DNA of 64,000 nucleotides, from the IMG/VR virus record IMGVR_UViG_3300030330_002808, positions 1 to 64,000 of that record; one strand, 5' to 3'. Below are positions 3,055 through 46,954 of the stretch, piece by piece; positions within the stretch are counted from its first letter, which is position 1; the number at the start of each line of letters is the position of its first letter. The position numbers were made by a program, and so were the translations under genes. Origin of the DNA: an uncultured virus (IMG/VR IMGVR_UViG_3300030330_002808) (taxonomy: Duplodnaviria; Heunggongvirae; Uroviricota; Caudoviricetes). Below the pieces are notes generated by a model. The model made no database searches. It had not been told where the DNA came from and was given only the letters and a program-made list of their open reading frames with translations.

Positions 3055-4407
3055 TTATTCTCCCAGACCTAATGATTTTGGATCATCTGAATCTGTTTCT
3101 ATTTCAATATCTGCGAAATAATTATAGTTGTTTAATAGGTCTTTATATTTCATAGGTATTTCATCTGATGCGACTCCAAAAGTCATTTTATAATTATTAA
3201 TAGCTTTTGCGGTAGCATTTAATCCAGAACGTTTTAATCCTTTTAAGAAAGCAATTTTATTTGATCCTTCACCTAATGAACGTAAGGCTAATTCAATATC
3301 TGCAACGCTAAATCTACCACCTGATTCTCTAGATCTTGCAATTGCGTATGCTAAATTTATAATATCAGTTTTTGCTGCTTGTGTCTCACCTGCTTTTAAA
3401 AATCTTGTTAATTTAGCATTAACTGTACTATCATTTTCTAATCTTGCAATTGCGTCCTCAACATCTTTCATACCTAATTTGTACAAAGTTGGATTTTCTT
3501 TGTTTTTACGATTTAGAAACTGATCTACAAAACCAGAAACGCCTGTTACAAATCCCACAGTCTCAGCGGCATTACCAGTAAATGCTCCTTTTTGAATGAT
3601 ATCTTTTTCAATTCTTCTGATAATTCTTGCAACATCATCAGCGGCTAACATAGCAGCTTTAACATCATTTCTAATCTTTTTCTCTTCTTTTATTGAATCA
3701 ACTTTCAACATCATTTCAATATTACCCTCAACAGGTTTATATTTATCAGGATTTCTTAAAATTAAATCTTGATCTACATATGATGGATTTAAACTAAATT
3801 CACCAGTATCTTCATTTAACACATAAGCTGTTCTTAAAGTTTTCTTTTCGGGTAAAGGTGTATATCTAATAACATTTTGACCTTCCTTATTGTAACTTAC
3901 ATTTAAAACATCACTTGGTTTTACGAAAGCAATTTTTTGAGTCATGTTATCAAAAGCTTTCATCGGTTTACTTTTATCTACTTCAGGAACAGGTACAAAT
4001 CTTGGTTGAGTTGGATCTTTTTGTGATGCCTCTGTTTGAATTCTTTTTTCAGTAACAAATACAACTGTATCTGTATCAGAGTCTAAAACTTTTTTTGTAT
4101 TTGCAAATTTTGTTTCTGCTCTTTGATCTGCTCTTGCTTTTGCTTCTTCATCTAATTGTTTAATTTGTAATGATAATCCCGGTATTGGTTCTAGACCTTT
4201 TCCAAATGCTCTAGCTAAAGATCCTAATTGACTTTCACCTGGCATTACTCTTGCTTGTAATAAAGCAGAAGTTATAGGCGTAAGTAAAAGATTTCTTTTT
4301 TCCGTTTGTGAAAAACCACCTACTTTAAATTTTTCTACCTTTAAATTCTTATCTTGTTTTTTAAGATAAGCTTTTCTAAATAAAGGTCGCATTAAAACCT
4401 TATTCAT
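3055..4407 (-). CDS. putative middle ejection protein, copy A (450 aa)
   Basis: N-terminus MNKVLMRPLFRKA nearly identical to MNKVLNRPLFRKA of 61280..63508. Lies between the small and large ejection-like genes. Confidence 0.55.
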   Translation of the reverse strand: MNKVLMRPLFRKAYLKKQDKNLKVEKFKVGGFSQTEKRNLLLTPITSALLQARVMPGESQLGSLARAFGKGLEPIPGLSLQIKQLDEEAKARADQRAETKFANTKKVLDSDTDTVVFVTEKRIQTEASQKDPTQPRFVPVPEVDKSKPMKAFDNMTQKIAFVKPSDVLNVSYNKEGQNVIRYTPLPEKKTLRTAYVLNEDTGEFSLNPSYVDQDLILRNPDKYKPVEGNIEMMLKVDSIKEEKKIRNDVKAAMLAADDVARIIRRIEKDIIQKGAFTGNAAETVGFVTGVSGFVDQFLNRKNKENPTLYKLGMKDVEDAIARLENDSTVNAKLTRFLKAGETQAAKTDIINLAYAIARSRESGGRFSVADIELALRSLGEGSNKIAFLKGLKRSGLNATAKAINNYKMTFGVASDEIPMKYKDLLNNYNYFADIEIETDSDDPKSLGLGE

Positions 4408-9953: not shown

Positions 9954-12145
9954 TACCTTTGTCCATCTGGTTGTGTATCAGCTCTAAAAGTTCCATATCT
10001 CCAACTTTGATTTACTGAAGTATTTTCTACTCTTAAACTAGCAAATCTAGCTCTAGCTCTAGTATCTACTTTAGTCGTTGAACTATCTATTGTAAAGGGC
10101 CCCAGTGGAGATGAAGTTTCATTATCTACTGGAAAATCCTTTAATAATATTGATATTTTAGCATCCCCTGTTAAAACTTTAAAGTCTGGCACAAATCTTC
10201 TCATGCTTATAAAAAATTGACCATTACCTTGAATATCTAGGTCAAAATCCCCTGACTTTATAAAAGATACAATAGCTGTAGATGTACCATTAGCTGCTAC
10301 CTCATTAGTGCCTTGCTCATGTGCGTAGTAAATAGAAGATCCTCTTGAATTTGTAACACCATTTATAGTTGGAAAAGTTGGCACCCCTGTTGAATTAAAT
10401 TTTGTTGCATATGGATTTTCAAATAAAGATGCATCATAGTAAGTAGTTCTATCTAATGTGCCTGTTGTCCATACTCCCTCAGAGTAATTATAAGTTACAA
10501 CACGATCTATAATCGTTGAACCACTTTTTGGATAAAACCAATTTATTTCAGAGTATAAAGTATTGTAACCCGCATATACTATTTCAGCACTAGAAAATTG
10601 AATTCCTAAATTGTCACCATCAGTTGTAAAAACAAAATCCTCTACTAAACAAGGTAGTGATTTCACTGTTCCATCATAAACAAAAAAACCTCCAGCTTGA
10701 CCCATCCAATAAACTTTACCATCCACATATCTCATGGAGTGTTGGCCTATAGCTCCACAATTAGATCCGACCTGACGGATTGAGAATGTAAATGGAGGCC
10801 CAACAAATTGCATTACGTAAGCGGCAGTATCAGTCAAAATTAAAATGTAATCTTTTCCTTTTGCAGCACCTACTATTTTAGTCCCACTATCCAATCTAAA
10901 TGTTCCAGCAGTATTTGTAGATGTTGGTGCATAAGTATTTATATCTTCCTGATCAGAAAATCTTATAAATAATTTATCTTGTGATGATGTAGTGCCTATC
11001 GTTGTTTCAGTTCCAAAAATTATTAAGTGTCTATCTCTTTCGGATACCACAGATCCCACTGATGCAGTTGGTGCGTTTGTGACTTTAACAGCTCTTGTTG
11101 TTAATGCATTAGTATTTGCGGCTATAGGATTCCAAGAAAATGTGTTTCCATTTTTAACAGTAGCCACTAATTGTTGACCAAAATTATCCAATGTCCAATT
11201 TGCAGGTTCTAAAATAACTGATGACGTTCCTGAAGAAGAACCAAAACCTGTGAAATTTGATGCGTCTGTTACTGTTGCACCATTTGAGTGTGCTTGTCCA
11301 TTTGAAGTGCCCGGTGTCGCTGTTCCGTTAGCCCCCCTTGTAATACCAGTTAAATCGTTACTTGAGATACCACTATAAGTAATTAACTCATTACCAACTA
11401 AAACAACACCTGATGTTGGTAAATTAGCAACTGAGTTAAGTGTAATACTAGTTCCTGACCCACCTGTACCTGCTGTATCTGGATTTAAAGCTCCATTCAA
11501 TGATGTTTGTACTGGGTTAGTAACTGTACCACCATATAAACCAGTACCGAATCCATAACCAAATGTTTGAGTTGCAGGGCCAAAATCAACATAAGGTTTT
11601 ATAGACACTGCACCCGCAGCTGTCATACCAGTTCCAGTTTCATTTGAAGGCATAGTAATAACAACTGATGCAAAAGTGGCAGACTGAACTTCAAACGCAT
11701 TTGTTGTGAAATCACTTACAGAAAACCCTGTTGCACCACCACCTGGTAAAGTTACTGAATCTAATAAAATAAAATCACCTGCATTTATACCAGAGCCAGA
11801 TACATTTATTGTAACAGTTGCTGAACCGTTAACCGATGTAAAAGTTCCTCCAGAAATAGTAGATGCTAATGGAGTGATGTCATAAAAAGCATTAGAATAA
11901 TAAACTAATAATAATTTATCGGTTCCAATAGCTGCATATTGTCTACCATTTAAATCAGTCCACATATGCTGTTCTCTTGCTTGTCCAGCAAACGTGCTTG
12001 TAGTAAGCTGTTGCCAACCACCTATTTTCTCAGGTAAGCCATATCTAAATCTTACATTATCTCCATCAACCCACTGACCCTCAGCTCCAGTTTCAGTAAC
12101 TTGTTTATTAAATCCAGGTCTTATTGGTACACTTGTTAAAGGCAT
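9953..12145 (-). CDS. tail tubular/nozzle (head-closure, P22 gp10-like) protein
   Basis: 730 aa beta-rich ORF. WVDGDNVRFRYGLPEKIGGW N-terminus, IRFSDQE, and a DTQPDGQR C-terminus typical of this class. Confidence 0.7.
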   Translation of the reverse strand: MPLTSVPIRPGFNKQVTETGAEGQWVDGDNVRFRYGLPEKIGGWQQLTTSTFAGQAREQHMWTDLNGRQYAAIGTDKLLLVYYSNAFYDITPLASTISGGTFTSVNGSATVTINVSGSGINAGDFILLDSVTLPGGGATGFSVSDFTTNAFEVQSATFASVVITMPSNETGTGMTAAGAVSIKPYVDFGPATQTFGYGFGTGLYGGTVTNPVQTSLNGALNPDTAGTGGSGTSITLNSVANLPTSGVVLVGNELITYSGISSNDLTGITRGANGTATPGTSNGQAHSNGATVTDASNFTGFGSSSGTSSVILEPANWTLDNFGQQLVATVKNGNTFSWNPIAANTNALTTRAVKVTNAPTASVGSVVSERDRHLIIFGTETTIGTTSSQDKLFIRFSDQEDINTYAPTSTNTAGTFRLDSGTKIVGAAKGKDYILILTDTAAYVMQFVGPPFTFSIRQVGSNCGAIGQHSMRYVDGKVYWMGQAGGFFVYDGTVKSLPCLVEDFVFTTDGDNLGIQFSSAEIVYAGYNTLYSEINWFYPKSGSTIIDRVVTYNYSEGVWTTGTLDRTTYYDASLFENPYATKFNSTGVPTFPTINGVTNSRGSSIYYAHEQGTNEVAANGTSTAIVSFIKSGDFDLDIQGNGQFFISMRRFVPDFKVLTGDAKISILLKDFPVDNETSSPLGPFTIDSSTTKVDTRARARFASLRVENTSVNQSWRYGTFRADTQPDGQR

Positions 12146-37796: not shown

Positions 37797-39274
37797 TAAT
37801 AATATTTATATTCTTTCTCTACTTTAAAATTGGGTTCATCCCAATCGTCAGAGTAAGTTGATACAAATCCTCCTTGTCTGTATCTTAACACAGCTTGTGT
37901 CATACTATCAACATAGTCATCAAATTGGCCATTTGGAAAAGCTGCACATTCTTCAACAACTTCTTGAGCATAGTTTTGATCTAAAGGGGCATATACCATA
38001 CCCGATTCAAAAACAGGAGCACAACTGTTTATTCTAGTGTGTTTATCTCTACCTCTTGCAGGGACGTAATCGATGACCGGTATCCCTGCTCTCCTTAGCT
38101 CATGTATCAAAGGCTGCCCTGAGGCTTTAGCCTCAATAATTACAGTTTCCGGTTCCCAGTAATGATATTGCTCTAATGCAACATTTTTTAAATCAGGAAA
38201 ATCATACCTACCCTTCATTGCATCTAAAAGTATTATACATTTTTCATAACCCTCTACAGGTTCAAAAATACCCCAAGTGGTTATGGCTGAATAGTCCGCT
38301 GACTCTTTTTTAGAAAATGCTGTATCGTAACTTTGTATAACGTGTAAAAGTTTTGGTGTATATTCTTTATCCCAATTTTGCCACCACTCGCGTTTTATGA
38401 TTGCACCTTCTTCTGAAGTAGGATCTTGCATGTATTGTGCATTCCAATTTTTTACGGACACCGAAGCTTTGACAGCTTCCAAATCTTCTTTCGACCAATA
38501 TTCAGGCCATACAGGTTGATCGTTAGGAAGTATTGCAGGAAACTCTATAACTTTCCATTTATCTGCTTTAGGCTCAGATTGAGCCTTAATGAGCCTTCCT
38601 GTTAAATCATCAGTAGCCCATCTTGTCATCACAACACAAATTCTTCCACCTGGTTGTAAACGTTGTCTAGGTCCTGATGAATACCAGTCATAAGCTCTAT
38701 CCATAGCAGAATCAGACATTGAGTCTTGTTCAGTATGTGGGTCATCGATAATAAGCAAATCCGCCCCTCGTCCTGTGATAGAACCGCCAACCCCCGCTGC
38801 AAAATATTCGCCACCATGATTTGTCTCCCAACGGCCTTTTGCCTTACTATCTTCTCTTAGTGTAACATTTCCGAAGATCTGTTTATACTCCTTGGTATTC
38901 ATTAAATTACGAACTTTGCTACCGAATCTTGTAGCGAGTTCCGCATTGTGTGATACCTGCATTATTTTCATCTTAGGATTCCTACCAATCATCCATGCGG
39001 GGAATAAATAAGATGCAAATTCTGATTTAGTATGTCTTGGTGGCATATTGATAATGAGCCTTTTTTCTTTATTGGCCGCTATTTTTTGAAACTCTTCAGC
39101 TATTATTTGATGGTGCCCATATCTTTTTGGGTCCTTTGTTTTACGATAAATAAAATCTTGCCAAACTGTTTGAGCAAAAATTAAAAAATCATCTTGGCAT
39201 AACTTGATCCACTGCAATTGCTTTTGCAAAATTAAATCTTTTAATTCATCTTCTGTAAGGTTTTCTAAGTTCAT
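37796..39274 (-). CDS. terL: terminase large subunit
   Basis: MPPRHTKSE (Walker A-like), LLIIDDP, TRW, SYDTAF and DDYVDS nuclease motifs. Start re-called at MNLENL. Confidence 0.92.
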   Translation of the reverse strand: MNLENLTEDELKDLILQKQLQWIKLCQDDFLIFAQTVWQDFIYRKTKDPKRYGHHQIIAEEFQKIAANKEKRLIINMPPRHTKSEFASYLFPAWMIGRNPKMKIMQVSHNAELATRFGSKVRNLMNTKEYKQIFGNVTLREDSKAKGRWETNHGGEYFAAGVGGSITGRGADLLIIDDPHTEQDSMSDSAMDRAYDWYSSGPRQRLQPGGRICVVMTRWATDDLTGRLIKAQSEPKADKWKVIEFPAILPNDQPVWPEYWSKEDLEAVKASVSVKNWNAQYMQDPTSEEGAIIKREWWQNWDKEYTPKLLHVIQSYDTAFSKKESADYSAITTWGIFEPVEGYEKCIILLDAMKGRYDFPDLKNVALEQYHYWEPETVIIEAKASGQPLIHELRRAGIPVIDYVPARGRDKHTRINSCAPVFESGMVYAPLDQNYAQEVVEECAAFPNGQFDDYVDSMTQAVLRYRQGGFVSTYSDDWDEPNFKVEKEYKYY

Positions 39275-39411
39275 ACCGTTTGGGTCCTTAGTATATTTAT
39301 GTATATTGCTTTGTAAACCTCTTTTGCAAAATGCACAGCGCATTTTACGCGGTTTTTTGCCAGGCACAACCTTCTGCATTTTGTAGCTACAGGTGAGCCT
39401 TGGATACACCA

Positions 39412-39432
39412 ATGGCGCGATAAACGCGCCAT
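39412..39432. terminator. hairpin at the end of the early operon
   Basis: ATGGCGCG-ATAAA-CGCGCCAT downstream of 39446..39697. Confidence 0.5.
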
Positions 39433-39445
39433 CAGTACAACGATG

Positions 39446-39697
39446 TTAATTATTTAGTTGTTGGATAAGTGTAGAAAACTTATCTAATATTTTTTGTTTG
39501 AACTCATCAACGACTTGGTTGCCTTGGTTCTCGAGAATATGTTTCTCAACCTCTCCTTGGAGTAGTTGAAACATAATTTCGTAGTTGAGTTGTTTTTTGC
39601 CATTAGCGTCTATGTGCAACGCTGATTTTTCAGTCGGCTTGTTATTGCTAACTCGTTCACTCAATACTTGAGCAATATTAATTAAACTATTTGTCAT
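39446..39697 (-). CDS. putative early hypothetical protein
   Basis: AGGAG RBS. Coupled ORF. Confidence 0.65.
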   Translation of the reverse strand: MTNSLINIAQVLSERVSNNKPTEKSALHIDANGKKQLNYEIMFQLLQGEVEKHILENQGNQVVDEFKQKILDKFSTLIQQLNN

Positions 39698-40013
39698 TAG
39701 TATCTCCTATTGCTTTGTATTCACTATAAACAATCTCGGTAGTGAACTTGTTGAATAAATCGTTATGTGCAATTTTAAAATTTGCTGTTTCAAATTTCTT
39801 ACGCTTACGATTTATTTTTTGAACTCCAAAAGAATTACCGCCCTCATCCTGAACAATAATTAAATTTTGGTTGGTTCTGTCAAACACATTAACAATATTT
39901 TGTTTCATTGTGTCTAACTCTTTAGCTAGTCTATTAGACTTTAGCTTTAATTGAGCATAAGCTAGAACTACTTTTTTTTCGTCCTGCTTTAGCTTTTTTA
40001 TTGCTTGTGTCAT
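39687..40013 (-). CDS. putative early hypothetical protein
   Basis: Start MTQAIK after an ACTAACAAAGGAG leader. Confidence 0.7.
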   Translation of the reverse strand: MTQAIKKLKQDEKKVVLAYAQLKLKSNRLAKELDTMKQNIVNVFDRTNQNLIIVQDEGGNSFGVQKINRKRKKFETANFKIAHNDLFNKFTTEIVYSEYKAIGDTNDK

Positions 40014-40043
40014 TTTTAACTCCTTTGTTAGTTTGACCACTAA

Positions 40044-40071
40044 CTCTTATCATATCCCATATCTATTGCAA
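40044..40071 (-). promoter_or_regulatory. putative early promoter containing ATGGGATA
   Basis: TTGCAA-16-TAAGAG. Shares a 16-mer with 40729-40744. Confidence 0.55.
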
Positions 40072-40074
40072 TAG

Positions 40075-40278
40075 TTAATTTAACTTTTTTTTGTCTAATT
40101 TTAAAAGTATTGGTTCAACCTCAAGTTGTATAAAATCACTCCCAACTATTTTTTTCAATCTGCCTGCCATTTGGGTTAACTCTGCTGTAACTCTATCTTG
40201 TTCAATCTGACCTCTCTTACGAGGTTGAGACCGAGGCGAGGCGACAACTGTCGCCTCTGCTTTTTTATTTTTCGACAT
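40075..40278 (-). CDS. hypothetical protein
   Basis: Coupled by a TAATG overlap. Confidence 0.5.
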   Translation of the reverse strand: MSKNKKAEATVVASPRSQPRKRGQIEQDRVTAELTQMAGRLKKIVGSDFIQLEVEPILLKLDKKKLN

Positions 40279-40703
40279 TACCAGCTACACCAATATTCAA
40301 CGACCTTTTTCTCATCTATCGCCTGCTCACAGAATTTAAGAAATTTAATGTCCTGCTCTTTGTATTCTTTGACACTCTCTTTCTGAAATTGTTGTCCCCA
40401 AAAGAAACCATCTGTTGCGACATAATCCTTAAAGCCATTTTTGATACATTCCCCCAGCTCCTGCACAACTTCCTTTGTCATGTAACAAGGCGTGTCTTGG
40501 TCGGCATTGAAACCGAGATGCTTGAGAAACCCCTCAACTTCTATTTTGGGGTTCTGTTCTGCCCACTTGCACGACATAAATTGTTGTAGTCTTGCGTGCT
40601 TTCTCCAAACGAAAACTTTTTCTGTTTCCTCTTTGTCATCATCAAAGTATTTTTCCCAATTTACCTTATGACCTCTTAAATGTGCGTGTTGGTCTAGTCC
40701 CAT
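40278..40703 (-). CDS. putative early phage protein (MGLDQ...WRKH...GFFWG)
   Basis: Recognisable MGLD/WRK/GFF pattern. Strong leader and RBS. Confidence 0.75.
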   Translation of the reverse strand: MGLDQHAHLRGHKVNWEKYFDDDKEETEKVFVWRKHARLQQFMSCKWAEQNPKIEVEGFLKHLGFNADQDTPCYMTKEVVQELGECIKNGFKDYVATDGFFWGQQFQKESVKEYKEQDIKFLKFCEQAIDEKKVVEYWCSW

Positions 40704-40727
40704 TTTCTCTCCTTTGTTAGTTTCTTC

Positions 40728-40755
40728 ATCTTATCATATCCCATCAATATAGCAA
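40728..40755 (-). promoter_or_regulatory. putative early promoter containing ATGGGATA
   Basis: TTGCTA-16-TAAGAT with an extended -10 TG. Confidence 0.6.
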
Positions 40756-40828
40756 GAACTATTTTTTAGAATAATTCTAAACTAGCCGACCACCAGAATC
40801 CCGTGCCTGAAGCACGGCAGCTCGTGAA

Positions 40829-40933
40829 TCACTTAAGATATAAGAAAATCAACATAATCAGTACGAGAACGAGGTTACCAAACCTAGGAGCTAACAGGTA
40901 TGCCAGCAGTAAAAATCCAAATAAATGTATCAT
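40829..40933 (-). CDS. small hydrophobic peptide (34 aa)
   Basis: MIHLFGFLLLAYLLAPRFGNLVLVLIMLIFLYLK, followed by hairpin CCGTGC/GCACGG (40801-40817). Confidence 0.45.
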   Translation of the reverse strand: MIHLFGFLLLAYLLAPRFGNLVLVLIMLIFLYLK

Positions 40934-41033
40934 TATCTACGCAACAGCCTGGGATGGGTCTGGCCCCGCAGGGCCCGGTAACCAATGTTAATTCTAAAAC
41001 CAAACGAGACGAGGCGAGAACGACACGACATTA

Positions 41034-41282
41034 CTAATCTCCTTTTATACGATAGTCCATCCAGCCAACTGCTTCTTCGACACCTTTGATGAACGCCTCC
41101 TTCTGCTGCACGGTATCAAAGTCGTATCTCTTCTCCACATCGTATCCTTTCCCCCACACGAGGGTGATGCTGCAGCCTGAAGGTACCTCAGACTCCTTCC
41201 AACTGTTTCCGTTGGCAATGCATTTGCTGCCCCGAGCACCGGTCAGTGCGTAGGTCTTACCTGCTTCGGGTTTATCTTTCAT
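41034..41282 (-). CDS. putative early hypothetical protein
   Basis: Start MKDKPE after AACAAAGGAG. Confidence 0.65.
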   Translation of the reverse strand: MKDKPEAGKTYALTGARGSKCIANGNSWKESEVPSGCSITLVWGKGYDVEKRYDFDTVQQKEAFIKGVEEAVGWMDYRIKGD

Positions 41283-41430
41283 ATCTTTTCTCCTTTGTTG
41301 GTTCATCCATTTCCTTTTCGTTGTTAAAGCGGATGCATATAATTATTCCGTTATCGTCTGAATGAAGTATCTCATTATCATGGTGTGGGCATTTGCCGAC
41401 CCAATCCTTCATGTCATCATCGTGTATCAT
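41272..41430 (-). CDS. putative early hypothetical protein
   Basis: Start MIHDDD after TAACAAAGGAG. Confidence 0.6.
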   Translation of the reverse strand: MIHDDDMKDWVGKCPHHDNEILHSDDNGIIICIRFNNEKEMDEPTKEKRYER

Positions 41431-41570
41431 TGTTTCTCCTTTGTTAATTCTTATCCGATCAGTAGCGGGGTTAAAGGTTAACCATCCAACCCGCTTTCGA
41501 CTACTGATCCTGATCAGTCTTAGCCGCAGTTCCTCTTTCGAGTTAGTCAAGGTTCAACTGATCCATTTCT

Positions 41571-41599
41571 AACATAAGACCAGATGGGATATTTGTCAA
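41571..41599 (-). promoter_or_regulatory. sigma70-like promoter
   Basis: TTGACA-17-TATGTT. The spacer contains TATCCCAT. Confidence 0.7.
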
Positions 41600-41740
41600 C
41601 AGTTAATTTTTATTTTTTTTACCAGCAGCTCTTGGTGCTCCCTGAAGTTGCCAGCAGCAGGTGCCCAGACTCAAATGTAAAACGAGAACGACACATTTCC
41701 CTTTCTTAAACGAGAAACGAGCTTCCAACAGGATCCCGTC

Positions 41741-41788
41741 CCAGAGCCCCATGTCAACTAACAAAGGGAAAAAAACATGGAGCTCTGG
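41741..41788 (-). ncRNA. candidate hairpin sRNA with anti-RBS loop
   Basis: 14-bp stem (one G-U pair on the minus strand) with loop UUUUUUCCCUUUGUUAGUUG. Confidence 0.45.
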
Positions 41789-41808
41789 CACGAGAACGAG
41801 GTCATACG

Positions 41809-42357
41809 TCAGGTGGAAGGTGCCTGTGCCGTACGCTGCCTGGACTGGGATGGTAATTCCTTTCTTAAACGAGAACGAGATTGTTCAACTAAACGAGAAC
41901 GAGCTTCATCTGACGCTGCACCGGGTACCTGCAACAGGTAACTCTGGACCGCTGGCCAGTCATACGGAAACGAGAACGAGGCACGAGGTTTCAGTAACCG
42001 AGGATCGGTGAACAGGGACACCGGCTCGTACAGTTTAAGGACTCTCTCAAAGAGGGCTTTACCCAAGTTTTCATGCAGGATAAATACAGAACCACCAGCT
42101 TTAATATATTTATTAATCCATACAATTTGCCATTTATTTAACGCTGGAAAACTGATGTGATCTGATTTTAATTCAATCCAAAATATTTTTGTTTTAGCAA
42201 CTGCATGAACATCAGGTATTCCATTGATTGTACTAGATTCTATGCGGGTTAAGAAGCAATCAGTCAGTCCTTTTTTTACCTTTTGCCACAAAAGACTTTC
42301 AGGGTTTTTTACATTGCTTTTGTAGTCAGTATTTTTATATTTATTCATGTGAAACAT
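41809..42357 (-). CDS. PD-(D/E)XK nuclease, Holliday junction resolvase/VRR-NUC-like
   Basis: PESLLW...RIES...GIPDV...WIELK...Q..W motifs. Confidence 0.75.
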   Translation of the reverse strand: MFHMNKYKNTDYKSNVKNPESLLWQKVKKGLTDCFLTRIESSTINGIPDVHAVAKTKIFWIELKSDHISFPALNKWQIVWINKYIKAGGSVFILHENLGKALFERVLKLYEPVSLFTDPRLLKPRASFSFPYDWPAVQSYLLQVPGAASDEARSRLVEQSRSRLRKELPSQSRQRTAQAPST

Positions 42358-42961
42358 TATCTAAATTGGATAAAGTCAGTAACTCTTTTGAACCAATAAC
42401 ACCAGAGCAAAAAGTATTAAATGATAAACTAATTCTATCTTCCTCACCCTCATTAATAGGCACACTATGTCTTAAGGATGACGGAAATAATATTAAATCC
42501 CCTGGTTTACACAAAACTTTAAAAACTTCTGCATTAATTTGATTATATTTAGTAACGTTAAGTTTTAAACTATCCTGTCTTTCTCTCACAAAATGTATAG
42601 GTGGTAATTTTTCATTTATTTGAAAATACATGACACCGGACACAATACTATTTGGGTGCACATGCTCATGATGTACTGATCCTTTGGGATTACGATTAGC
42701 CCAAGACTGTGTTATACTGATTGTTTGGTCTGAATTTAAAACATCTTTAACAAATCTATGAATAGCTAACTCAATAAAAACTTTAACATTACACAACTCA
42801 TCTCTTTTTAATAAAAATGTATCTTCAGATCTATAATTACCATTACCCTTCTGCTCTAAAAAATTAATTGTTTTTAGATAAGATAGCTCATTATCAACAG
42901 ATTCACCGTACGGCAATATTAATAAAGGTGTAGGAAATAGTCGTAGTAATTCTACATTCAT
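42341..42961 (-). CDS. 2OG-Fe(II) oxygenase (TIGR02466-like)
   Basis: HVHPNSIVSGVMY...LFPSSLRHSV...RISLSFN motif. Confidence 0.85.
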   Translation of the reverse strand: MNVELLRLFPTPLLILPYGESVDNELSYLKTINFLEQKGNGNYRSEDTFLLKRDELCNVKVFIELAIHRFVKDVLNSDQTISITQSWANRNPKGSVHHEHVHPNSIVSGVMYFQINEKLPPIHFVRERQDSLKLNVTKYNQINAEVFKVLCKPGDLILFPSSLRHSVPINEGEEDRISLSFNTFCSGVIGSKELLTLSNLDNVSHE

Positions 42962-43257
42962 TTTGTAGATAATTTTTTAATTTTAATAATTACAGAATTT
43001 GGAATAAGAGTGGTATTACCAATCTCAATAGTTCCATCATCATTTTCAGAATAATCACCAAATATTCTTGTTATGCCTTTAGATTGACTTAACAAATGGC
43101 CTTTGGTTACACAAATAGGTAGCTTAGCCTGGAGGCAATTTGTAATTGTTTGCCAACTACTATCACTGCAAATGTCATACCAATCAACGGAAACAAGAGG
43201 GTATTTTTCTTGCCATGTTTTTGCCTTTTTATTTATATTTATTTTTCGTTTCAACAC
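42958..43257 (-). CDS. hypothetical protein
   Basis: VDWYDI.SDSSW...IP pattern. Confidence 0.6.
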   Translation of the reverse strand: MLKRKININKKAKTWQEKYPLVSVDWYDICSDSSWQTITNCLQAKLPICVTKGHLLSQSKGITRIFGDYSENDDGTIEIGNTTLIPNSVIIKIKKLSTK

Positions 43258-43328
43258 TTACAACTCCCACAGATGTATTTAAATTAGGGTTATGTTTTTC
43301 GTTAAAAGCTCTAACGAATTCAGACCAA

Positions 43329-43835
43329 CTAGCTTTCTTCCACTTTGGCTTCGATGGTCTTTGCGTTGTACCCATCGATTTTTGTCGAAAGCTCTTGTAA
43401 TTTTTTCTCAAGCTCATCTCGTGACATACCCTCCAATCCAGTTACTCTAACTTCTTTTTTATCAACATAAGCACCAGCTAATTGTCCTGATCTATATTCT
43501 GCATTTATTGCAGCAGCGTATTGATCTTTCTTCTCAGCTTTGTCTGCTAGTCTTTCTAATCTTTTGAATCGTCTAAGGTTGTCACCCTCATACATTTTAA
43601 GTTCTTTACTAAATCTAGTGTCAAAATATTTAGCAACATGTGGATTTAATCTTCTACTAAGTAATCTAGATGCTATTGCGGAGTAATCATTTTCGTTCTT
43701 ACAAACATATCCAGCTCTTTTTAAGGCCTCCGCTTGTGTGATGTTACCCCAATCTTTAACATAAATCTCCACAAACATTTTTTGTTTTGGAGTTAAGTCA
43801 TCTACAGTTCTTAATTCTTTCTTTTTTAGACCCAT
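43329..43835 (-). CDS. terS: terminase small subunit
   Basis: LTPKQKMFV...AEALKRAGY...ASRLL HTH pattern of Terminase_2-type proteins. Confidence 0.7.
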   Translation of the reverse strand: MGLKKKELRTVDDLTPKQKMFVEIYVKDWGNITQAEALKRAGYVCKNENDYSAIASRLLSRRLNPHVAKYFDTRFSKELKMYEGDNLRRFKRLERLADKAEKKDQYAAAINAEYRSGQLAGAYVDKKEVRVTGLEGMSRDELEKKLQELSTKIDGYNAKTIEAKVEES

Positions 43836-43971
43836 TACTTTCTCTTCCTTTTAAACCAAGTTAAAAATTTTAAATCACTAAAATAATATGCAATATCAGC
43901 GGCACTCATTTGATCCGTAACAATACAGTCATAAATATCATCGTAATCTTTTCTTTTTATTTTTGCTCGTT

Positions 43972-44217
43972 TCATTCTATTGTTAACCCATTATCTAATA
44001 CAATTTTTTCTTCTGTTTCTATCCAAACTCTTGCACCACAAGGTAAAGGTTTTATTGGACTGTAAACTAATTTTGATTTACCTAAAATGTCAACTTCATT
44101 AGCATAAGTGTTTGACTTTGAAGTTTTTACTGTAATCACGGGTTCCTCTGTTCCATTTTTTTTATTTGCTCTAATTTTATGTTGATTAATATGTATTCTT
44201 TTTTTCATTTTATGCAC
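43972..44217 (-). CDS. hypothetical protein
   Basis: IHINQHKIRAN...PVITVK...PLPCGARVWIET pattern. Confidence 0.65.
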   Translation of the reverse strand: MHKMKKRIHINQHKIRANKKNGTEEPVITVKTSKSNTYANEVDILGKSKLVYSPIKPLPCGARVWIETEEKIVLDNGLTIE

Positions 44218-46613: not shown

Positions 46614-46890
46614 ATATTCTCCAACTAGAAAAACAAGAAAGAATTTTATCTAATGCTTCGTGAAACTTAATATTAGCTCCTAGATTATCTTTACAATTAA
46701 ACTCTCTGTAAAGTTCATTATTCACGTGTAATGATATTTTATTTGTATCTTCATCAAGAGTAAGAACAAATTTTCTAACTTTTGATTCGTCTCTGTCTTT
46801 TTCTTTAACCCATTCAGGCTTTAAGACTAATGGTTCAACTGTAGCTGTAGCTCCAGTCGTCACACCTTCTATTTTTTGATCTTCATTCAT
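46600..46890 (-). CDS. hypothetical protein
   Basis: Start MNEDQK after an ACTAACAAAGAGG leader. Confidence 0.65.
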   Translation of the reverse strand: MNEDQKIEGVTTGATATVEPLVLKPEWVKEKDRDESKVRKFVLTLDEDTNKISLHVNNELYREFNCKDNLGANIKFHEALDKILSCFSSWRIYERN

Positions 46891-46954
46891 GGTATCCTCT
46901 TTGTTAGTTTTATCTGAATATAATATTTTTAATGGGATATGCAAGGATAATTTT

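Follow-up and report, generated by a model that had tools for sequence, protein, structure and literature searches.

Directly after a putative nuclease gene of an uncultured phage lies a hairpin that we propose as a candidate new RNA family, recognized from uncultured genomes alone and with unusually clear comparative support. Its loop is complementary to the leader of a conserved 108-aa gene further downstream and, judged from this complementarity, probably turns down translation of that gene. The DNA belongs to an 83,261-bp IMG/VR virus record, and the window, i.e., the whole stretch analyzed, comprises bases 1-64000 of that record.

Genomic setting and fold of the hairpin

The window has a G+C content of ~33% and carries almost all of its genes on the minus strand. 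The large terminase is 71% identical to the terL product of Pelagibacter phage HTVC023P, and on this sequence measure the 83-kb uncultured phage is a relative of HTVC023P. Read along the minus strand, the hairpin is preceded by terS, a 99-aa ORF, a 2OG-Fe(II) oxygenase gene and the putative nuclease gene, and it is followed by a stretch of variable small genes, each with its own sigma-70-like promoter, and by the 141-aa gene, a 67-aa ORF, the 108-aa gene, an 83-aa ORF and terL (Table 1). Besides the PHROG matches listed in the table, the nuclease matches Pfam Hjc at E 0.014, under the family cut-off.

Table 1. Features around the hairpin and predicted duplexes of its loop; positions are those of the window.
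Feature	Position	Strand	Remarks
terS	43329-43835	-	first recognizable gene of the run ending at the hairpin; PHROG 51; Pfam Terminase_2 E 7e-9
2OG-Fe(II) oxygenase gene	42341-42961	-	
Putative PD-(D/E)XK-type nuclease gene	41809-42357	-	PHROG 2165 E 4e-12; PHROG 93 'endonuclease' E 4e-7
Nuclease stop codon	41809-41811	-	hairpin base 13 nt further on
Whole conserved hairpin	41729-41798	-	outer stem, two 1x1 mismatches, inner stem, loop; covariance model R1 38 bits, E 5e-7
Inner stem, 5' arm	41775-41788	-	CCAGAGCUCCAUGU
Loop with antisense sequence	41755-41774	-	UUUUUUCCCUUUGUUAGUUG
12-nt antisense core	41756-41767	-	CCUUUGUUAGUU; exact complement of 40022-33 and 40711-22
Inner stem, 3' arm	41741-41754	-	ACAUGGGGCUCUGG
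Conserved sigma-70-like promoter TTGACA-17-TATGTT	41571-41599	-	downstream of the hairpin; in relatives with spacer motif ATATCCCAT
141-aa gene	40278-40703	-	
Leader, Shine-Dalgarno site and AUG of 141-aa gene	40701-40724	-	best predicted target in this genome only
108-aa gene	39687-40013	-	conserved (alignment A2); opens the run 108-aa / 83-aa / terL
Leader, Shine-Dalgarno site and AUG of 108-aa gene	40011-40045	-	family-wide predicted target, site 40022-33
Weaker predicted target	46888-46910	-	AAACUAACAAAGAGGAUACCAUG of ORF starting at 46890; -17.6 kcal/mol, 11-nt match
Duplex, rank 1	40695-724	-	-22.0 kcal/mol; 141-aa gene; 19 pairs, one bulge
Duplex, top-five site	40005-034	-	-17.6 kcal/mol; 108-aa gene
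Duplex, top-five site	46881-910	-	-17.6 kcal/mol
Duplex, top-five site	41277-306	-	-17.5 kcal/mol
Duplex, top-five site	41421-450	-	-17.1 kcal/mol

For the minus strand of 41731-41798 the predicted fold has -37.2 kcal/mol, with inner and outer stems of 15 and 6 bp and a loop of 18-20 nt that displays UUUUUUCCCUUUGUUAGUU; 200 shuffled sequences had a mean of -17.5, and none folded as well (z -7.33). The plus strand reaches -25.0 kcal/mol and has a C-A mismatch where the minus strand has a U-G pair, in agreement with the original prediction that the stem is better paired on the minus strand. Covariance model R1 has a single match in the window and a single match in the whole 83-kb genome. No U-tract is present 3' of the stem, where the flank reads GGGACGGGAUCCUG, nor is there an evident processing site. 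A stem is present as in an intrinsic terminator, but with a loop of this size and without a U-tract, and the consensus terminator scan was silent. Rfam cmscan of 39000-44000 at E <= 1 returned no family, C4 antisense RNA included; the only Rfam matches on the hairpin were two sub-threshold miRNA models (23.6 and 22.6 bits, compared with gathering scores of 76.8 and 99), and these are chance matches. No match to cultured phages was obtained by blastn of 40900-42400, and two metatranscriptome contig sets (6% of the sampled words), compared over 39400-43900, gave short pieces between 39706 and 41222 and none at the hairpin.

Ahead of the genes with starts at 40013 and 40703 stands AACUAACAAAGG, of which the loop is the exact complement. 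The 12-mer AACTAACAAAGG occurs exactly at 40022-33 and 40711-22 on the minus strand and at 41756-67 on the plus strand, with one-mismatch copies at 41292-303, 41438-449 and 46898-909, all on the minus strand; these six matches at up to one mismatch compare with 1.03 expected, and six were reached in 1 of 100 shuffles. A duplex scan with the loop covered both strands of the whole 83-kb genome (55,488 windows; mean -4.88, sd 2.52), and after the trivial self-complement its top five sites are all minus-strand ribosome-binding sites, 5-7 standard deviations from the mean (Table 1). The 108-aa leader is short and weakly structured (-7 kcal/mol). The original prediction had named the two exact 12-nt complements, which an exact-match search reproduces, and contiguous matches of 11, 9 and 8 nt at three further sites with partial match to the loop, which are correct as listed; it had also proposed a genome-wide target ranking, and in the duplex scan five minus-strand ribosome-binding sites head the list.

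Several other elements lie close to the hairpin. Between ~40780 and 42050 the G+C content is 43%, and six to eight same-orientation copies of CTCGTTCTCGT are found. In the form CTCGTTCTCGT(TT) they lie on the minus strand at 40863-40873, 41682-41692, 41790-41800, 41869-41879, 41893-41903 and 41970-41980, with variants of CTCGTTCTCGT near 41005-41025 and 41712-41722; they are built of CTCGTT units, and six exact 9-mers are present where 0.06 would be expected. One copy forms the 5' side of the outer stem of the hairpin. In relatives the repeats make up a fixed module, two arrays with a G+C-rich hairpin, upstream of a conserved promoter, and they are candidates for a regulator-binding site, a Rho-loading site or a cassette-exchange recombination site. 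In the relative L159, an additional gene cassette separates the hairpin from the repeat/promoter module, with a tandem 9-nt repeat (GAGTAAGTT / GAGTAAGCT, at 3505-3600 and 3840-3865) on its flanks; this arrangement suggests that the cassette was gained by recombination at the repeats.

The conserved sigma-70-like promoters at 41571-41599, 40049-40078 and ~40735-40765, all on the minus strand, fall into two classes: TTGACA-N17-TATGTT with the spacer motif ATATCCCAT, and TTGC(A/T)A-N16-TAAGA(T/G), whose spacer contains the reverse-complement motif ATGGGATAT. The promoters of each class are followed by a shared leader, and the motif in the spacer may serve as an operator. Between the promoter at 41599-41571 and an ORF starting at 41430 lies a leader of ~130 nt (41431-41563, minus strand) that is strongly structured (-39.5 kcal/mol, z -3.2); it includes a long hairpin whose arms are GAUC-rich, and it has no Rfam match. 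A plus-oriented, terminator-like hairpin followed by a T-run (GAGGCGACAACTGTCGCCTC then TGCTTTTTTA) is located at 40238-40267, inside the minus-strand 67-aa ORF. For the 90-aa ORF at 41034-41306 (minus strand), the ATG at 41281 is the probable start, preceded by the Shine-Dalgarno site 41292-98. The motif at its N terminus, ALTG.RG..CIANGN.WKESEV, forms a separate ~53-aa protein in relatives such as L196, which points to a fusion or extension in this phage.

Conservation of the stem and of the loop match to one leader

Related IMG/VR contigs were found with a 14-mer of the flanking repeat. Searches with the N-terminal domain of the nuclease and with the 108-aa protein gave 442 and 287 relatives, respectively, and the counts rest on the best 80 of each set. 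Downstream of the nuclease, 77 of the best 80 of 442 loci have the hairpin on the gene-sense strand, two of the three misses having <150 nt of downstream sequence; upstream of the 108-aa gene, it is present in 57 of the best 80 of 287, where 13 of the 23 misses have <2200 nt upstream. A covariance model was built from 15 hairpins; this model and a broader pattern recovered the loop variant of L129-134.

Several unrelated stem sequences occur among the relatives, and the pairing is maintained. In 58 distinct sequences aligned to the model, 97.5% of the stem cells are paired, compared with 81.3% after shuffling, both sides have changed in 12 of 17 stem pairs, and the covariation score is 0.424 compared with 0.142; the observed value was reached in 0 of 500 shuffles for each of the three measures, to be read in the light of an alignment that was fitted to the model and so favors the structure, and of sequences that are mutually related, so that p-values are not strict and the shuffle tests overstate independence. 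An independent MAFFT/RNAalifold run gave compensatory changes in 7 of 7 predicted pairs, and controls with slid partners were paired in 26-54%. In L128, the closest relative among those listed, the stem differs by one compensated pair (A>G / U>C). Among 78 distinct hairpins, 110 cells hold G-U pairs and 5 hold A-C mismatches, an asymmetry that favors the gene-sense strand; this strand also gives the more stable structure in 54 of 65 hairpins folded by themselves.

The position of the hairpin is conserved as well. In 47 of the 57 listed loci readable in frame, the nuclease ORF, which includes a G+C-rich C-terminal extension, stops between -3 and +13 nt from the stem base, with TAA, TAG and TGA all in use. 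From this stop position the hairpin is a 3'-UTR element of the nuclease gene, and lying directly after the stop codon (47/57 loci) it occupies the position of a 3'-UTR-derived small RNA. Two elements of the original prediction thus extend beyond this genome: the covariation, the G-U excess and the 54 of 65 folds identify a conserved structure of the gene-sense (minus) strand, and the conserved stop places the hairpin directly after the terS / 2OG-oxygenase / nuclease run.

Unlike the variable stems, the loop retains a U-run plus (A/U/C)CCUCUUUGUUA, with a conserved core CUUUGUU. In most relatives the loop complement, AACAAAGAGGUAAAA(UG), differs from the common leader with AAAGGAG and corresponds to the leader of the 108-aa gene in particular, where the unusual site AAAGAGG is used. 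Among the possible duplex partners in a locus, the 108-aa site ranks best in 18 and the 141-aa site in 2 of 33 distinct loop/leader combinations, and the 108-aa site pairs more strongly than the 141-aa site in 30; a strong match to the 141-aa leader is seen only in this genome. A loop complement of at least 10 nt is present in 50 of 57 hairpin-bearing loci. Exact complementarity extends up to 17 nt in the tabulated relatives, and a manual reading of the table gives a 19-nt exact complement including the AUG for L189 and L203. Against the antisense reading, the core shared by most relatives comprises only 10-11 A/U-rich nt, and the duplex energies are moderate (-13 to -21 kcal/mol).

Loop and leader occur in at least three discrete matched states. 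A loop complement of AAAGAGG goes with the target AAAGAGG, the lineage of the window combines AAAGGG with AAAGGAG, and L129-134 have AAAAAGGA with AAAAAGGAG, the 141-aa gene keeping AAAGGAG throughout; the loop likewise reflects whether the leader reads ACAAAC, ACTAAC, TTAAC or CAAC. In a permutation test, the mean longest exact complement was 11.61 nt in true pairs vs 10.62 +/- 0.19 in re-paired ones, and in the 23 pairs with distinct loops and targets 11.13 vs 9.65 +/- 0.33, with 0 of 10,000 shuffles reaching the observed mean in either case. Among 67 loci with enough upstream DNA, the hairpin accompanies 50 of 51 AGAGG targets and 6 of 15 canonical AGGAG targets; the sole AGAGG locus without it is a contig with a borderline match in another search. 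There are four exceptions to the co-variation: the CUUAGUU loops of L164 and L156 face ACAAAG, so that the change is uncompensated, and L237 and L239 keep a weak hairpin together with a 108-aa leader without any complement.

Two properties expected of a same-strand antisense RNA, display of the complement of a ribosome-binding region and co-variation with the target, are thus found in the hairpin. The original prediction had described the loop as antisense to translation-initiation regions on the same strand and had looked to co-variation of loop and leader in relatives, and the relatives agree on both points. Its proposal of several target genes is borne out in part. Five ribosome-binding sites match the loop here, so that the proposal is true of this genome, but across relatives the loop follows no general regulon, and the comparison singles out the 108-aa gene as the conserved partner. 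The 108-aa leader of this genome is the common AACUAACAAAGGAG, with a loop complement of 12 nt exact. Judged from these leaders, in the lineage of the window the 108-aa leader became the common AACUAACAAAGGAG and the loop followed, and the match to the 141-aa gene is a side effect of the same leader.

The 108-aa protein is strongly conserved, has no Pfam or PHROG family and gave no tblastn match to cultured phages. Its structural model (pLDDT 82) consists of a long helix and a three-stranded sheet and has no fold match (best Foldseek hit vs PDB E 0.24; best VIA-align Z 4.0). For the nuclease, gp25 of HTVC023P is the sole match among cultured phages (44% identity). The gp27 protein of the same phage is a distant homolog of the 108-aa protein (26% over 50 aa, E 1e-4), with the leader AACTAACAAAAAAGG. 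The hairpin model has no match in the HTVC023P region searched (L207), and other repeats lie downstream of gp25. A second exact 15-nt copy of the gp27 leader is located at 10862-76 in the same orientation (L209 1440-1560, equal to record 10800-10920), between the bidirectional gp19 terminator and the stop of gp20; as gp20 is oppositely oriented, this copy would be antisense to the gp27 leader, within the 3' UTR of gp20 and immediately ahead of a canonical terminator. It might just as well be the start of a small unannotated ORF on the plus strand, and it is therefore not counted as support.

Proposed mode of action and alternative readings

We consider it rather likely that the hairpin belongs to a same-strand antisense RNA that blocks the translation start of the 108-aa gene and, in this genome, also that of the 141-aa gene. 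A structured gene-sense RNA of ~70 nt would form the 3' untranslated end of the terS / oxygenase / nuclease run and would be transcribed as part of this upstream mRNA. Its stem would present a loop of 11-24 nt antisense to the initiation region of the 108-aa gene, located 1.3-2.7 kb downstream on the same strand; the antisense match covers the short 5' leader with the Shine-Dalgarno site and extends in some relatives to the AUG. By pairing with the leader, the loop would act as a competitor of the 16S rRNA tail at the Shine-Dalgarno site and keep 30S subunits from binding, so that less of the 108-aa protein and, in this genome, of the 141-aa protein would be made. As the loop is closed by a stem of >20 bp, a 17-bp helix cannot easily form. 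Action in trans, as a stable 3' fragment, has in our estimate slightly better than even chances, and action in cis, within read-through transcripts, slightly less than even ones. A further step, quite unlikely to our mind, would make the hairpin a trans-acting riboregulator whose loop/leader classes are specificity groups, as c4 is for P1 and P7; if true, the RNA of one phage would turn off the 108-aa gene in co-infecting relatives that belong to its own class and spare other classes, amounting to an RNA-based code for exclusion or timing in a very abundant marine phage group.

A location directly after a stop codon and a long G+C-rich stem are also what would be expected of a structural 3'-end element (a factor-dependent or tail-less terminator, an RNase III site or a 3'-exonuclease block), in which case the likeness of the loop to the leader would have no regulatory meaning. 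The gene end at 39412-39446 likewise has a hairpin without a U-tract, and repeated promoter and stem-loop cassettes are known in T4-type phages (PMC2839356). We regard a purely structural role as unlikely: it leaves unexplained that a freely varying stem carries a conserved loop and that the loop variants track the leader variants of one gene, and both the missing U-tract and the silent terminator scan speak against it. The co-variation itself would also arise if one DNA-binding protein reads two inverted copies, since two operator copies would co-vary with their protein, and the loop and the 108-aa leader are indeed 12-19 bp inverted repeats on one DNA molecule, with a variable cassette zone between them that could undergo recombination or inversion. 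Such a DNA-level element is very unlikely given the G-U excess (110 vs 5) and the covarying stem, which indicate a single-stranded fold of one strand, and given that no recombinase or repressor was identified near the hairpin. The orientation of the genes is also constant: in 110 of 110 listed loci the 108-aa gene, and in 122 of 122 the 141-aa gene, points the same way as the hairpin. Inversion of the DNA between the two copies was rejected, since none of these 110 and 122 loci shows the inverted arrangement.

The original prediction had itself offered a plus-strand alternative, in which the loop is the ribosome-binding site of a 54-aa ORF (41777-41941) and the AUG is masked in the stem. The plus-strand loop does have the sequence of a complete initiation region, AACTAACAAAGGGAAAAAAACATG, yet the ORF is unsupported: in L128, with a nuclease 97% identical, ACG takes the place of the ATG, and the other arm carries a compensating change. 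The start codon is absent in L061 and L013, and in L056 and L087 the ATG is immediately followed by TAA; start codon and frame are not both kept in these relatives. With a plus strand that folds worse, a 54-aa product without a family match and an overlapping minus-strand ORF with a conserved stop position, this alternative can practically be set aside. The loop could instead be bound by a protein or the ribosome, e.g., with ACCUCUUU mimicking the 16S anti-Shine-Dalgarno tail and acting broadly on Shine-Dalgarno sites. The commonest loops contain ACCUC followed by U's, in likeness to the 16S 3' tail, and five ribosome-binding sites head the target ranking in this genome. This reading nevertheless has only a slim chance of being the right one, as the loop follows lineage-specific variants of the 108-aa leader and spacer outside the Shine-Dalgarno core, which argues for a specific partner rather than a general one.

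Relation to known regulatory elements

Same-strand antisense control of the 108-aa gene, the reading we prefer, shares features with several known systems. In the 3'-UTR-derived small RNAs of enterobacteria, and in C-rich-loop regulators (e.g., RNAIII and RsaE) of Gram-positive bacteria, a regulator shares the 3' end of an mRNA or a C/U-rich loop pairs with Shine-Dalgarno sites. The present hairpin differs in that the seed lies in the loop of the terminal hairpin itself and no U-tail follows, and a stable fragment is a hypothesis here. In phage T4, the ribosome-binding sites of, e.g., e, soc and I-TevI are masked in read-through transcripts, and only the transcripts from their own promoters are translated. 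There too an upstream sequence of the same transcript pairs with a downstream initiation region, but the T4 partner is close and forms a simple local hairpin, whereas here a separate stable hairpin lies >1 kb upstream.

Promoter / stem-loop (PeSL) cassettes occur in T4-type phages (PMC2839356, PMC4122927). The variable small-gene region with its repeated sigma-70-like promoters, shared leaders and stem-loops resembles them, but the hairpin is single-copy with a conserved, target-matched loop, whereas the PeSL stem-loops are repeated terminators; with one hairpin match in the 83-kb genome, only promoters and leaders are repeated, unlike in a PeSL-type cassette. In the literature on pelagiphage small RNA we found no report of RNA-based regulation, and the main text of the main genomic paper (PMC9599517) does not contain the words hairpin, stem-loop, promoter or intergenic. 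With the mechanism proposed here, lytic-type marine phages would join the few temperate coliphages in which same-strand antisense control is known, and the conserved 108-aa protein beside the terminase would stand out as a gene product whose dosage or timing matters. The named target makes the candidate RNA family directly testable.

In logic, the nearest known analogue is the c4 antisense RNA of phages P1 and P7, reportedly described by Citron and Schuster in 1990. c4 is a tRNA-like RNA released by RNase P, whereas the element described here consists of one long hairpin that immediately follows the stop codon of a protein gene. It has no sequence or structure match to c4 and is not of the c4 family. 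c4 belongs to the immI operon of P1 and P7 (PMC8201110). The present target is 1.3-2.7 kb off, past several promoters, and has no known tie to immunity or lysogeny. The likeness to c4 lies in the arrangement and in its evolution: an antisense RNA is located upstream of its target on the same strand, its loops pair with the downstream ribosome-binding region (here by prediction), and loop and target differ together between related phages.
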